In this document: positions 52,213-57,896 of the stretch, piece by piece | Numbering within the stretch: the stretch's first letter is position 1 | Layout of the letters: the number at the start of each line of letters is the position of its first letter | Source: Escherichia coli | Lineage (GTDB): Bacteria; Pseudomonadota; Gammaproteobacteria; Enterobacterales; Enterobacteriaceae | NCBI RefSeq assembly: GCF_013315695.1 | Contig: NZ_CP054353.1 | Length of the DNA stretch: 64,000 nucleotides | Reading direction: 5' to 3' (one strand) | The notes under the pieces: generated by a model | Databases searched by the model: none | Told to the model about the DNA's origin: nothing | What the model saw: only the letters and a program-made list of their open reading frames with translations | Position numbers and translations under genes: made by a program

Positions 52213-53630
52213 TGGCGACATGGCAACTTGGCGGGCTGCCTAGCATGGCACCGCAAAATGATAATGCTCCTCGTTCTTCCGTTCCTCAGCCTGTGCAGTA
52301 TCAGCAGCAGCCAAACGTAGGTTTAATGGCGCTACAGGGGCTAAGAGGCGTTGCTGAGATTAATCAGCAGGCACGTCAACAACAGCGTAAAGCAGAGTTT
52401 CAGAAAGCATATGCCGGGGCTTTTGAGTCTGGAGACAGAAACAAAATGCGCAGTCTTATTTCTGAGTATCCAGAAGAATTTGAAAGCGTTCAGAAAGGGA
52501 TGGGCTTTATTGATGACGACCAGAGAAATTCTATTGGTCATCTTGCGACTAGTGCTCAAATCGCATCTTCGCTCGGAACTGGGGCATTTGGAAAATTCAT
52601 AGCAGATAACGAAGATGAAATGCGTCGTTTGGGAATTTCTCCTGAGTCTGTTGCCGAAATGCATGTTAATGATCCACAGGGATTCCAGCGGCTTGCTGGT
52701 AGTATGGCACTGTTTTCTCTCGGTCATGAGAAGTACTTCGATATCAAAGATCGAATGGAAGGTCGGGATATTGAGCGTGGCAAGTTGGCAGAGACGATCC
52801 GCAGCAATCAAGCCGGAGAAGCACTTCAGGCGAGAGGGCAGGATATTAGCCGAGCAAATGCGTTAACGTCAGCATATGCACCAACAGCCGCAATGCAGAA
52901 TTACAATCAATACGCGCAAATGTTAAAGGCGGATCCAGAGGGGGCTGCGGCATTTGCGGCAGCGGCTGGAATTAATACAAACGCCAAAAAATTAATGAGT
53001 GTTAGAGAAAACGATGATGGCACTGTCACAAAATACTACACAGACGGAAGTGAAGAGCAGGGAAAACTAAACCAGCCAATATCTGGAGATGGGTTTCGTC
53101 CAATAGCTTTGCCAACAGCCCAAAAGATCATGGAAAAGTCGCCAGAAGGGGCTAAAAAAGCTGCTGGATTTGCATACAGAGTTAGGGATGCTCTTGATTC
53201 AATAGATACACTGAAAGACCAGCTTAGCCCACAGCGAGTGGCGATCATTAATAATGCTTTGGGTAATGGGACGCTGGCTAACTTAACGCTCAGCCCAACA
53301 GAGCAGCAATACGTTGTTAATGCTAATGACGCAATAATGGCAATACTCCGTCAGGAAACAGGGGCATCTATCCTACCAGCTGAAATGTCCAAATATTATC
53401 AAATGTATTTCCCTCAGCCTGGTGATTCCACAAAAACCATTGATACCAAGCGTAGGAAGATGGAAAACCAGTTCAATTCGCTGAAAGCTGCTTCTGGTCG
53501 AGCTTATGATGCTTTGCGGGTTATTTCAGCAGTTGACAGAGGAACTTCTTCTTCGTCGCAGACATTGCCGCAATCTGAGCAGGTATCACAGCCAGCAGTA
53601 ATTTTTCTTCACTATGGGGTGATTAGGTAA
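52212..53630 (+). CDS. Hypothetical protein (candidate phage ejection/internal protein); 3-prime end runs into IS1
   Basis: 472-aa ORF whose last codons and stop lie inside the IS1 terminal repeat (IS1 begins 53626). Confidence 0.4.
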   Translation: MATWQLGGLPSMAPQNDNAPRSSVPQPVQYQQQPNVGLMALQGLRGVAEINQQARQQQRKAEFQKAYAGAFESGDRNKMRSLISEYPEEFESVQKGMGFIDDDQRNSIGHLATSAQIASSLGTGAFGKFIADNEDEMRRLGISPESVAEMHVNDPQGFQRLAGSMALFSLGHEKYFDIKDRMEGRDIERGKLAETIRSNQAGEALQARGQDISRANALTSAYAPTAAMQNYNQYAQMLKADPEGAAAFAAAAGINTNAKKLMSVRENDDGTVTKYYTDGSEEQGKLNQPISGDGFRPIALPTAQKIMEKSPEGAKKAAGFAYRVRDALDSIDTLKDQLSPQRVAIINNALGNGTLANLTLSPTEQQYVVNANDAIMAILRQETGASILPAEMSKYYQMYFPQPGDSTKTIDTKRRKMENQFNSLKAASGRAYDALRVISAVDRGTSSSSQTLPQSEQVSQPAVIFLHYGVIR

Positions 53631-53640
53631 TGACTCCAAC

Positions 53641-54144
53641 TTATTGATAGTGTTTTATGTTCAGATAATGCCCGATGACTTTGTCATGCAGCTCCACCGA
53701 TTTTGAGAACGACAGCGACTTCCGTCCCAGCCGTGCCAGGTGCTGCCTCAGATTCAGGTTATGCCGCTCAATTCGCTGCGTATATCGCTTGCTGATTACG
53801 TGCAGCTTTCCCTTCAGGCGGGATTCATACAGCGGCCAGCCATCCGTCATCCATATCACCACGTCAAAGGGTGACAGCAGGCTCATAAGACGCCCCAGCG
53901 TCGCCATAGTGCGTTCACCGAATACGTGCGCAACAACCGTCTTCCGGAGCCTGTCATACGCGTAAAACAGCCAGCGCTGGCGCGATTTAGCCCCGACATA
54001 GCCCCACTGTTCGTCCATTTCCGCGCAGACGATGACGTCACTGCCCGGCTGTATGCGCGAGGTTACCGACTGCGGCCTGAGTTTTTTAAGTGACGTAAAA
54101 TCGTGTTGAGGCCAACGCCCATAATGCGGGCTGTTGCCCGGCAT
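53641..54144 (-). CDS. insB: IS1 transposase InsB frame
   Basis: 167-aa ORF identical to the second IS1 copy. Confidence 0.9.
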
Positions 54145-54338
54145 CCAACGCCATTCATGGCCATATCAATGATTTTCTGGTGCGTACCGGGTTGAGAAGC
54201 GGTGTAAGTGAACTGCAGTTGCCATGTTTTACGGCAGTGAGAGCAGAGATAGCGCTGATGTCCGGCGGTGCTTTTGCCGTTACGCACCACCCCGTCAGTA
54301 GCTGAACAGGAGGGACAGCTGATAGAAACAGAAGCCAC
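54063..54338 (-). CDS. insA: IS1 InsA
   Basis: 91 aa with Cys-rich zinc-finger N-terminus ([28 protein letters not shown]). Confidence 0.9.
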
Positions 54339-54611
54339 TGGAGCACCTCAAAAACACCATCATACACTAAATCAGTAAGTTGGCAGCATCACCGAATAAA
54401 CGTATCCTCACGATTGCGCCATTCTTCTTACCGATATTCTGACACACATCATTAACTTTCTATTTTACTCTTTTCTCCACCATAAAATCAATAAAAGCAC
54501 TAACAGTAATTATAAATAAAAACAAAGCCAAAAATCTTGGTTCCAAAACTGGTAACAACTAACCAGTTTAAATATACGCATCAAAATCAGATAAACATTT
54601 GAGGTATTGTC

Positions 54612-54854
54612 ATGACAAAAAAACACCTATCACTGTTTTCTCCTTTTATGCTGACAGAAAAAATAAAGCCATGTAATCGTATCGTTATGGCTCCTATGAC
54701 GACCTGGTCAGCTAATCCTGATGGAACCATCTCTGAGCAAAAACTCGAATATTATAAATGTCGCTCACAAAATATTGGTTTAGTAATTACAGGATATACC
54801 TATGTCACGCCAAGGAAATTCAGGCATCGAAAGGAACTGGCTGGTTTCCGTTAA
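54612..54854 (+). pseudogene. N-terminal fragment of an Old-Yellow-Enzyme-type NADH:flavin oxidoreductase
   Basis: 80-aa ORF with OYE-like N-terminal motif (KPCNRIVMAPMTT), terminating early. Confidence 0.4.
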
Positions 54855-55785: not shown

Positions 55786-56052
55786 ATGATGAAGCCCAAT
55801 ATCCATCCTGAGTATCGTACTGTGGTGTTCCACGACACCAGTGTTGATGAGTACTTTAAAATCGGCTCGACTATCAAAACAGACCGTGAGATTGAGCTGG
55901 ATGGCGTAACGTATCCGTACGTAACAATTGATGTCTCTTCAAAATCGCACCCGTTCTATACAGGGAAGCTGAGAACAGTGGCATCAGAAGGAAATGTTGC
56001 ACGATTCACCCAACGTTTTGGTCGTTTTGTTAGCACGAAAAAGGGGGCATGA
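55786..56052 (+). CDS. ykgM: Ribosomal protein L31 paralog (zinc-independent, type B)
   Basis: 88 aa [19 protein letters not shown]... with no CxxC zinc ribbon. Confidence 0.9.
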
Positions 56053-56192
56053 TGAAAGTCCTTAACTCTCTGCGTACCGCAAAAGAACGCCATCCAGACT
56101 GTCAGATTGTGAAGCGAAAAGGACGGCTGTATGTGATTTGTAAATCTAATCCACGTTTTAAGGTCGTTCAGGGTCGTAAGAAAAAACGTTGA
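56052..56192 (+). CDS. ykgO: Ribosomal protein L36 paralog (zinc-independent)
   Basis: 46 aa [46 protein letters not shown]; ATGA overlap with the ykgM stop. Confidence 0.85.
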
Positions 56193-57143
56193 TTTAAAAT
56201 TCGACGAATTAACGATATTTGTCTGATTAATAATCAGACCTGATTAATGTTGGTGTATTTATTACACCAGCATTAATTTTCCTGGGGATGTATCTTCCTG
56301 TTCATTTAAGGTCAACTGCCTGACGTTTCTCTCCGAATATTCCATTATATTAATGTTGACTTGTTGACCAGCTTCGCCCTGTATGCTGGCATCAACTCTA
56401 TTTTAGACTGAACACGTCACTCAGTTTCCTCCCTTTGCGACGCAGCCTGCATTTACACTCAAACTATTAAGATGATAAATGTGGTAAATCTGTTGGTACT
56501 GGCATAAAAACGTTTACGCCACAGGAACGGCCTGATCCATCGGTAACCCCATCGCCGACGTTCGAGTGCCAGTTAGAGTAACGCGCACAGATGACTGAAT
56601 GCAGTGCCCTGGCAAAGAGGCCATCGTTCCTGTGACAACTGGCAGTCTTCGTTTAACTTCACTTAATTTGGCTCTTAGGGGGCTTACCGGACATGATGAC
56701 GTACTTACACCTGTTTAATTTTTCATCACTTATTGGAGTGAACACCCATAACCATTTTGTGCGGCATGTTAACCCATTAAAACACCTTACTGATTGGCAA
56801 ATCATCTTTAATTATGACTCATGATAGTTTTATATTCTATTTCTTATCATTTAAACTTGTTTTTTTACTAGTCCATTACACAACACATTAAGACTATTCC
56901 TAACACCTCAGGGCAAAGTTCCTGGCTAATATAAAATGCAAGTAAGAATTGAACGTTATATTGCCAATAACCTTATGAAACTGAATGTCTTTTTCTTCTT
57001 ATCAAAAAAGCAATATTTTCATTTTTTGTAAATATTGACTTAACCATGGAATTCATTTTCTGTTCACATATTGACACTCATCAGGAAAAAAACATAAATT
57101 TAAACCTAATCGAAATAATTAAAACTTAGGTAATGACTCCAAC

Positions 57144-57647
57144 TTATTGATAGTGTTTTATGTTCAGATAATGCCCGATGACTTTGTCATGCAGCTCCAC
57201 CGATTTTGAGAACGACAGCGACTTCCGTCCCAGCCGTGCCAGGTGCTGCCTCAGATTCAGGTTATGCCGCTCAATTCGCTGCGTATATCGCTTGCTGATT
57301 ACGTGCAGCTTTCCCTTCAGGCGGGATTCATACAGCGGCCAGCCATCCGTCATCCATATCACCACGTCAAAGGGTGACAGCAGGCTCATAAGACGCCCCA
57401 GCGTCGCCATAGTGCGTTCACCGAATACGTGCGCAACAACCGTCTTCCGGAGCCTGTCATACGCGTAAAACAGCCAGCGCTGGCGCGATTTAGCCCCGAC
57501 ATAGCCCCACTGTTCGTCCATTTCCGCGCAGACGATGACGTCACTGCCCGGCTGTATGCGCGAGGTTACCGACTGCGGCCTGAGTTTTTTAAGTGACGTA
57601 AAATCGTGTTGAGGCCAACGCCCATAATGCGGGCTGTTGCCCGGCAT
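57144..57647 (-). CDS. insB: IS1 transposase InsB frame
   Basis: 167 aa, identical to copy 1. Confidence 0.9.
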
Positions 57648-57841
57648 CCAACGCCATTCATGGCCATATCAATGATTTTCTGGTGCGTACCGGGTTGAGA
57701 AGCGGTGTAAGTGAACTGCAGTTGCCATGTTTTACGGCAGTGAGAGCAGAGATAGCGCTGATGTCCGGCGGTGCTTTTGCCGTTACGCACCACCCCGTCA
57801 GTAGCTGAACAGGAGGGACAGCTGATAGAAACAGAAGCCAC
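57566..57841 (-). CDS. insA: IS1 InsA
   Basis: 91 aa, identical to copy 1. Confidence 0.9.
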
Positions 57842-57896
57842 TGGAGCACCTCAAAAACACCATCATACACTAAATCAGTAAGTTGGCAGCATCACC

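Follow-up and report, generated by a model that had tools for sequence, protein, structure and literature searches.

Recombination between insertion sequence (IS) copies in inverted orientation inverts the segment between them, with one IS copy remaining at either end (Lee et al. 2016, PMC5009759). Of 110 rearrangements in the long-term evolution experiment, about 70% were the outcome of IS-IS recombination, IS1 inversions and deletions being among them (Raeside et al. 2014, PMC4173774). Missing target duplications come mostly from IS-IS recombination or from adjacent deletion (Ngan et al. 2024, PMC11708052). The window analysed here, a stretch of 64,000 nucleotides of Escherichia coli DNA (contig NZ_CP054353.1), carries two IS1 copies without target duplications. 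It was compared with a RefSeq record, the closed chromosome of E. coli MSB1_4I (NZ_LR898874.1), from which it differs by five substitutions and one indel in 24 kb. A sequence-only reading of the window had attributed both copies to deletions or rearrangements mediated by IS1 and not to simple insertions, and this proved right: copy 1 is the left end of a 23.4-kb inversion, and copy 2 marks a deletion of 2,346 bp.

Two identical IS1 copies with unmatched flanks

Copy 1 (window positions 53626-54393, minus strand, IS1A type) and copy 2 (57129-57896, minus strand) are each 768 bp long and identical at every base (768/768, 100%). The transposase lies on the minus strand in both, which places them in direct orientation with a start-to-start distance of 3,503 bp. 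The termini are imperfect inverted repeats (18 of 23 positions complementary), and the copies encode InsA of 91 aa and, through the A6C -1 frameshift motif TTAAAAAAC at IS position 305, an InsAB' fusion of 232 aa. The features by which the IS1 family is recognised, namely a length of about 768 bp, imperfect repeats of about 23 bp and insA and insB' joined by an A6C -1 frameshift, are thus all present, and RefSeq annotates copy 1 as 'IS1-like element IS1A family transposase, programmed frameshift'. In the MSB1_4I record the two copies are likewise identical to each other, yet they have A at IS position 507 where the window has T. Because of this disagreement in both copies, the use of single-base variants of IS1 (positions 34, 238 and 507) for mapping the crossover or ordering the events was abandoned; such disagreements may be consensus errors.

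Copy 1 is flanked by the 9-mers GGGTGATTA on the left and GAATAAACG on the right, and copy 2 by TAAAACTTA and GGATGATGG, exactly as quoted in the earlier reading, whose description of two identical direct copies lacking target-site duplications is confirmed. That reading had also named exact definition of the IS ends as the step that might yet reveal duplications of 8-9 bp, and none came to light. The 15-bp left and right flanks of each copy have no k-mer of five or more bases in common, so moving the IS ends by a few bases yields no duplication, and the outer flanks (left of copy 1 against right of copy 2) likewise have no common k-mer of at least five bases and no duplication. With the ends defined in the same way, the fdeC-borne IS1 of strain CU532-9 shows a 9-bp duplication, and IS1 insertions in MS20675 and in BEN5202 show 8-bp duplications. 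As these control insertions show the direct duplication of 8-9 bp that belongs to the IS1 family, its absence in cis at both copy 1 and copy 2 is the result of later rearrangement and not of the nature of the element.

The 3-bp motif TTA stands just to the left of both copies and is absent from the other IS1 junctions examined; it is taken as chance.

Copy 1 and the 23.4-kb inversion

The DNA to the right of copy 1, from 54394 to 64000 in the window, is part of an inverted segment of 23,403 bp (4054041-4077443 of NZ_LR898874.1), which ends at a third element, IS1 #3 (4053273-4054040 of the same record). This partner lies about 13.8 kb past the right edge of the window, where the sequence-only reading could not have seen it, and is inverted relative to copy 1; missing target duplications are resolvable only through such partner copies beyond the local window. 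The flanking 9-mers of the two elements are swapped, and where copy 1 has GGGTGATTA on its left and GAATAAACG on its right, IS1 #3 has GAATAAACG on its left and GGGTGATTA on its right. In the window, GGGTGATTA (53617..53625) is one half of a 9-bp duplication of a site designated x, the other half of which adjoins the IRL end of IS1 #3, and GAATAAACG (54394..54402) is one half of a 9-bp duplication of a site y, the other half of which adjoins the IRR end of IS1 #3. Copy 1 is a hybrid, with its left (IRR) junction from site x and its right (IRL) junction from site y, and it bears two different 9-mers without loss of DNA, as expected if recombination joined the left junction of x to the right junction of y. 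No DNA is deleted at copy 1; it derives from two ordinary insertions that have exchanged their 9-bp duplications.

Site x lies in a prophage-like island at thrW and is the overlap between the stop of one gene for a P22-type ejection protein and the start of the next. The P22 gp20-like phage DNA-ejection gene (52212..53625, plus strand) has IS1 in its last codons, at the overlap with the gp16-like gene, and its reading frame ends five bases inside IS1, by which the C-terminus is changed from ...GVING* to ...GVIR*. Site y lies in the spacer that separates a LysR gene from an oxidoreductase remnant. Both sites are found in the empty state: site x is contiguous in 317 genomes and, resolved at base level in ECONIH1, has a single GGGTGATTA at the junction of the gp20-like and gp16-like genes, and site y is contiguous in 90 genomes, of which AF14 and one more match at 100% identity, GAATAAACG being single in both CU532-9 (L002 10749-10757) and AF14 (L005 9292-9300). 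In an alignment of about 72 kb between MSB1_4I and its sister strain AF3 the orientation switches exactly at the IS1 copies, and the gene order of CU532-9 and AF14 agrees with that of AF3, which is un-inverted. Three marks of an IS-IS inversion, namely an inverted IS at each end, reciprocal exchange of the duplications and breakpoints at the IS ends, are found here.

Precursors and intermediates were searched for with queries made of flank, IS1 ends and flank at all three sites, and the junctions were shared by AF3 only; the high-ranking hits in E04, MS20675, GF60 and BEN5202 are independent IS1 insertions at other positions. In AF3 the gene order is the standard one, IS1 is present at sites x and y, and copy 2 is there too, its junctions identical. 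At y, LysR and GAATAAACG are followed by IS1, and at x, IS1 is followed by GGGTGATTA and gp16, these two IS1 being mutually inverted; one flank is gone at each of the two sites, and AF3 shows IS1-adjacent losses of 31 bp and 10.7 kb. An un-inverted IS1 at x with GGGTGATTA on both sides is present in no genome of the collection. Since there is no such pristine genome and AF3 is without one flank at x and at y, the un-inverted ancestor with both insertions is a reconstruction. Alignment with genomes lacking these IS1 copies, which the sequence-only reading had proposed as the way back to the original junctions, proved to be the check that resolved the question.

Copy 2, the ecp operon and the segment between the copies

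Copy 2 stands in place of 2,346 bp relative to AF14 (2,344 bp relative to CU532-9), and its flanks remain collinear and keep their orientation. The missing DNA comprises 148 bp of the ykgL-ecpR spacer, ecpR, ecpA, ecpB and nucleotides 1-242 of ecpC. On the left, TAAAACTTA (57120..57128) represents the last nine bases kept and lies in the ykgL-ecpR spacer, where the surrounding 100 bp are 76% A+T; on the right, GGATGATGG (57897..57905) represents the first nine bases kept, from ecpC nucleotide 243 onwards. The usher gene ecpC is left 5'-truncated (57898..60180, plus strand), and the intact ecpD (60170-61813) and ecpE (61782-62492) have lost their connection to ecpR and to the operon's upstream part. 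With ecpR, the major pilin ecpA, the chaperone ecpB and the start of the usher lost, the strain should not make the E. coli common pilus, a loss of production that is predicted from the gene content. Literature on disruption of ecp by IS1 comprised generic genome surveys only, none of them specific.

The missing ecp segment is found nowhere else in the MSB1_4I chromosome, where a query of anchor plus segment matches one place, as against two in other island-bearing genomes; its relocation within the chromosome was rejected for want of a second match. A single IS at the joint, collinear flanks and DNA missing from the chromosome are the marks of an IS-associated deletion. Among 5,426 genomes the copy 2 joint occurs only in MSB1_4I and AF3, and a precursor in the form of a simple insertion at either junction occurs in none; IS1 is present at other positions of the ykgL-ecpR spacer in at least nine unrelated genomes. 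A further inversion involving copy 2 and a fourth IS1 (between lacA' and ykgG) was considered and rejected, as the flanks of the latter, CGGGACACC and CAGGAATGG, are unlike those of copy 2 in any orientation, and the collinearity of the copy 2 flanks with the reference also contradicts it.

The DNA between the copies (54394..57128, plus strand, 2,735 bp) is a native chromosomal segment. It holds an oxidoreductase remnant of 237 nt (54613-54849), ykgR (55323-55424), ykgM (55789-56052), ykgO (56052-56192) and a ykgL remnant (56227-56401, minus strand), together with the LysR/oxidoreductase spacer and part of the AT-rich ykgL-ecpR spacer. The IS-free relative AF14 has the corresponding chromosomal stretch in collinear form at 99.85% identity, and in the un-inverted AF3 the same two IS1 positions enclose the segment in its native context. 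Two IS-free deletions inside the segment were considered as an effect of IS1 and found to be unrelated, this haplotype being common to the IS-free AF14 and about 90 genomes.

Course of events and comparison with described rearrangements

The course of events that we consider highly probable consists of three IS1 insertions, the loss of ecp DNA at copy 2 and then an inversion by homologous recombination between x and y. An ancestor of MSB1_4I and AF3 would have gained three IS1 insertions in the thrW-ykg region: at site x, with the 9-bp duplication GGGTGATTA; at site y, inverted relative to x and with the duplication GAATAAACG; and between ykgL and ecpC, where the third IS1 became copy 2. For copy 2 the likeliest path would be that IS1 inserted into the AT-rich ykgL-ecpR spacer and an IS1-adjacent deletion then removed the 2,346 bp; an identical sequence would result if the copy had recombined with a second direct IS1 in ecpC. 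The inverted IS1 at x and y would later have undergone homologous recombination in the MSB1_4I lineage and flipped the 23.4 kb, the products being copy 1, with the left junction of x and the right junction of y, and IS1 #3, with the left junction of y and the right junction of x. Recombination between pre-existing inverted copies appears most likely because AF3 shares the copy 2 joint, carries IS1 at x and y, and is un-inverted. We infer the order of the steps and their enzymology, that is, RecA-type recombination as against transposase. All orphan flanks in the window are accounted for by three insertions, a deletion and an inversion, and the close relatives AF3 and AF14 serve as stepwise intermediates.

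IS1 can transpose replicatively within one molecule, and it causes inversions and deletions. An intramolecular replicative event in which an IS1 at y (or x) attacked the other site would produce the inversion in one step, creating an inverted second copy and the same reciprocal pattern of 9-mers; it involves as many events as homologous recombination between pre-existing copies and is compatible with the finding that no genome has an intact simple insertion at x. We nevertheless regard it as unlikely. AF3 is un-inverted with IS1 at both sites and would have to have been re-inverted later by homologous recombination, so that one pair of sites must have undergone two rare events, a transpositional inversion and an exact re-inversion, whereas the favoured course takes one common event (simple insertion) and one rare event; furthermore, homologous recombination between IS copies is documented in E. 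coli as the route of most such rearrangements (PMC4173774, PMC5009759). It is very improbable that the inversion is an assembly artefact, in which the 23.4 kb between inverted 768-bp repeats would have been misoriented by the assembler. Inversions between inverted repeats of IS length do give no short-read signal (PMC5009759), but the chromosome in the record is closed, the copy 1 junctions are the same in the window and in the RefSeq record although these are not byte-identical, and any read of more than about 1 kb would suffice to resolve each junction.

At copy 2, IS1 might have been captured in a single step at a break during the deletion, without a staggered target cut by the transposase ('IS-Del', Ngan et al. 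2024), a route proposed for other IS families (PMC11708052) which agrees with the lack of both a duplication and, in the 5,426 genomes, a precursor insertion. The end-state sequence is the same for this route and for insertion followed by deletion, and yet the single step is improbable: 14 of 14 comparable deletion-associated IS150 events in an evolution experiment are placed among adjacent deletions of the ordinary kind (PMC11708052), ordinary IS1 insertion repeatedly hits the spacer that holds the left junction, and AF3 has ordinary IS1-adjacent losses in the same lineage. On the level of architecture alone, two identical direct IS1 around a short segment recall Tn9, but the probability that IS1-2.7 kb-IS1 was inserted as a unit is vanishingly small. 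The outer flanks are without a common duplication, the inner ykgR-ykgM-ykgO stretch is native and lies at the same position as its collinear counterpart in AF14, and in AF3 the outer flanks run on into native neighbours, LysR on one side and ecpC on the other; a composite-transposon origin is refuted, and the earlier statement that the 2.7 kb is not transposon cargo is borne out. There is little chance that either copy 2 arose as a one-step, duplication-free insertion with deletion, in this case of IS1 in a natural isolate, or IS1-ykgRMO-IS1 represents a nascent Tn9-like transposon; in the latter case the unit could mobilise Zur-regulated ribosomal-protein paralogues.

The mechanism, insertions followed by an IS-associated deletion and an inversion between inverted copies, is ordinary, textbook IS-driven rearrangement, and nothing known about IS1 is changed by it. 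The copies match IS1 (IS1A type) of E. coli fully in the element, and the flanks alone are unusual and are explained by the rearrangements. As in the IS1 and IS150 inversions of the evolution experiment (PMC4173774), inverted IS bound the segment, the flanks are exchanged and no sequence is lost. Unlike those inversions, which extend up to about 1.5 Mb, the present one belongs to a natural human-gut isolate, spans 23.4 kb, splits the prophage-like island at thrW in two and carries an ecp operon already damaged by IS1. Copy 2 resembles IS-adjacent deletions and deletions between direct copies (PMC5009759, PMC11708052) in its single IS at the joint, its lack of a duplication and its collinear flanks. 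On the one hand, the pair shares with Tn9 the direct identical IS1 around a cargo, here of 2.7 kb; on the other hand, unlike Tn9, it has no outer duplication and its cargo is native, the structure having been built in situ by independent events.

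Two identical IS1 copies and their surroundings

Read rightward, the upstream stretch holds proA, the tRNA-Thr gene thrW, an integrase and the early genes of a prophage-like island, then a primase and P22 gp14-, gp7- and gp20-like genes, up to IS1 copy 1 (window 53626-54393). Between this element and copy 2 (window 57129-57896) lie the LysR/oxidoreductase spacer, an oxidoreductase remnant, ykgR, ykgM, ykgO and a ykgL remnant, and to the right of copy 2 are a 5'-truncated ecpC, ecpD, ecpE, ykgJ and yagU. The oxidoreductase-to-yagU stretch is reversed relative to proA-thrW when compared with the genomes of CU532-9, AF14 and AF3, and among 5,426 complete genomes the whole 8-kb arrangement was found solely in that of MSB1_4I (NZ_LR898874.1), from a human rectal swab in Australia. 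The window differs from this record by five substitutions and one single-base indel in 24 kb (window 42027, 43867, 45972, 54132, 55786 and 57635), and two of the five substitutions are one T/A difference that both copies show at position 507 of IS1. This suggests that one assembly received a different consensus or polishing, or that the isolate is a near-identical one.

Both copies are 768 bp long with transposase frames on the minus strand, and pairwise comparison found every base the same. They start with GGTAATGACTCC and end with GCAGCATCACC, the two IS1 ends, and carry the hallmarks of the element: termini complementary at 18 of 23 positions, InsA of 91 aa, fused InsAB' of 232 aa and the frameshift motif TTAAAAAAC. 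RefSeq annotates an IS1A-type transposase with programmed frameshift in both. The flanking 9-mers are GGGTGATTA and GAATAAACG at copy 1, and TAAAACTTA and GGATGATGG at copy 2. The sequence-only reading had described these pairs as unmatched, which is borne out, as the left and right 15-bp flanks share no k-mer of at least 5 bases at either copy. The 8-9-bp duplications that it had named as its refutation were looked for after exact end definition and are absent at both. Since simple IS1 insertions elsewhere, in other genomes and under the same end definition, do give 8-9-bp duplications, their absence here is real and boundary error is excluded.

Copy 1 and a 23.4-kb inversion

A third IS1 in inverted orientation is located about 13.8 kb to the right of the window (record 4053273-4054040), with a LysR gene on one side and a 2.1-kb P22 gp16-family gene on the other. 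Its flanks, GAATAAACG and GGGTGATTA, are the 9-mers of copy 1 in swapped places. When the left flank of copy 1 was joined to the right flank of this partner with one GGGTGATTA kept, the rebuilt 600-bp site (site x) was the overlap between the stop of the gp20-like gene and the start of the gp16-like gene, contiguous and in one piece in 317 genomes; ECONIH1 has a single GGGTGATTA there, precisely where the two annotated genes meet. The reciprocal join, partner left flank to copy 1 right flank with one GAATAAACG kept, gave the LysR/oxidoreductase spacer (site y), which is found unbroken in 90 genomes, with AF14 and one more matching it at 100% identity. The swapped 9-mers, together with the rebuilt empty sites, indicate that the flanks of copy 1 derive from two separate insertions; they appear to be halves of two ordinary 9-bp duplications, exchanged by an inversion of 23,403 bp, and no DNA was deleted at copy 1.

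The sister genome AF3 (NZ_OZ547117.1, blood culture, UK) has the region in the standard, un-inverted order. One IS1 there has LysR...GAATAAACG at the side of its right terminal repeat (IRR), another has GGGTGATTA...gp16 at the side of its left one (IRL), and the two are mutually inverted. Over about 72 kb aligned, MSB1_4I and AF3 consist of collinear blocks whose orientation switches exactly at IS1 copies. In AF3 (L004 16829-17596, L006 25439-26206), the LysR-site copy has lost 31 bp (22 bp and one duplication copy) beside its IRL end, and beside the IRR end of the prophage-site copy the thrW island is shorter by 10.7 kb, so IS1-adjacent losses do occur in the lineage of these two strains. A further difference lies beside an IS2 copy of MSB1_4I (L003, a stretch of its record, 41098-42719), where 6.4 kb kept by AF3 (concatenated coordinates 34866-41278), with phage genes including that for a major capsid protein, is absent. 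The MSB1_4I/AF3/AF14 lineage is rich in IS1: IS1-end queries matched 25-35 places per chromosome, against a median of 11 per genome in the collection. A fourth IS1, outside the window (L003 15586-16353, record NZ_LR898874.1 4035585-4036352), links truncated lacA with ykgG between unmatched flanks CGGGACACC and CAGGAATGG, and the same arrangement is annotated in AF3; by the usual order of genes in E. coli, this implies that IS1 is associated with a large deletion of the DNA from ykgG to lacA.

The C-terminus of the gp20-like gene is changed from ...GVING* to ...GVIR*, and 23 kb now separate this gene from its downstream gp16-like partner, which has moved to the opposite strand, so that the island is split. 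This integrative element of roughly 19 kb (window about 41026-53625 and L003 34051-40116; compare ECONIH1, L007 414-19786) has the order integrase, HTH regulator, antirepressor, ash-family gene, primase, P22 gp14/gp7/gp20/gp16-like ejection genes and PerC-family regulator. Here its site is thrW, in ECONIH1 the yicC-dinD interval; 317 complete genomes have its gp20/gp16 junction, and the ECONIH1 copy has no annotated genes for capsid, terminase or tail. It looks satellite-like.

Copy 2 and the loss of the proximal ecp operon

The flanks of copy 2 share one strand and keep their order in CU532-9 and AF14, and the DNA missing between them amounts to 2,344 bp and 2,346 bp, respectively. It comprises 148 bp at the ecpR end of the ykgL-ecpR spacer, ecpR, ecpA, ecpB and nt 1-242 of ecpC. 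A query joining an MSB1_4I-specific anchor to this segment matched two places in other island-bearing genomes and one in the MSB1_4I chromosome, the anchor alone, which rules out relocation within that chromosome; the segment has been lost. The joint is common to MSB1_4I and AF3 only (5,426 genomes), with identical junctions, and AF14, a near-identical relative (99.85-99.96%), has an intact ecp operon and lacks IS1 at both the LysR site and that of copy 2. The operon is left without its regulator, major pilin, first chaperone and usher N-terminus, and the common pilus should therefore not be made by this strain.

The ykgL-ecpR spacer (window 56400-57128; L009, L010), with 76% A+T, is a recurrent IS1 target, occupied in at least nine unrelated genomes at differing positions about 0.1-0.55 kb from the left junction of copy 2. 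Two deletions free of IS were also seen relative to CU532-9: at window about 54505-54572, 68 bp stand where CU532-9 has some 2.08 kb with a second LysR gene and an alpha/beta hydrolase, and at about 54815, 893 bp are missing within the NADH:flavin oxidoreductase gene. Both are present in the IS-free relative AF14, and the reconstructed site spanning the first has matches in about 90 genomes; they are a lineage haplotype unconnected with IS1.

Order of events and comparison with known systems

The best-supported history would have four steps. IS1 would have entered sites x and y with a 9-bp duplication at each; another would have entered the AT-rich ykgL-ecpR spacer, after which 2.3 kb reaching into ecpC would have been lost; the lineages of AF3 and MSB1_4I would then have diverged; and in MSB1_4I the inverted x and y copies would have undergone homologous recombination. 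The alignment with genomes lacking these IS1 copies that had been proposed as a check yielded the original junctions (AF14, CU532-9 and ECONIH1), and the earlier view that both copies mark rearrangement or deletion, not simple insertion, holds, copy 1 being an inversion endpoint and copy 2 a deletion. A one-step transpositional inversion, without recombination between existing copies, gives the same end sequence, and it keeps some plausibility because no pristine ancestor of the MSB1_4I/AF3 arrangement was found in the genome collection; however, it needs a precise flip-back in AF3. For copy 2, adjacent deletion, recombination between direct copies and one-step insertion-with-deletion would lead to the same, indistinguishable end state.

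Arrival of the pair as a Tn9-like unit is ruled out: the 2,735-bp interior is 99.85% identical to and collinear with the same locus of AF14, the outer flanks are native neighbours in AF3, and those flanks (copy 1 left, copy 2 right) have no common k-mer of at least 5 bases. The suggestion that this is not a composite transposon with cargo thus stands, with a native interior and no outer duplication. As direct repeats, the copies could promote recombination that deletes or amplifies the ykgR-ykgM-ykgO segment. Directly upstream of ykgM, the palindrome GTTATGTTATAACATAAC (window 55760-55777) is a candidate Zur box by its resemblance to one; as it is intact within the inter-IS segment, the rearrangements have probably left the control of ykgM-ykgO by zinc unchanged.

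With Tn9 the IS1 pair shares architecture only. The event type is well known and its mechanism textbook, and the rearrangements of MSB1_4I agree with published IS behaviour: recombination between inverted copies flips the segment between them and leaves one copy at each end (PMC5009759), about 70% of the 110 rearrangements seen in the long-term evolution experiment were due to IS-IS recombination, IS1 events among them (PMC4173774), and where duplications are missing, the usual explanation is recombination between IS copies or a deletion next to one (PMC11708052).
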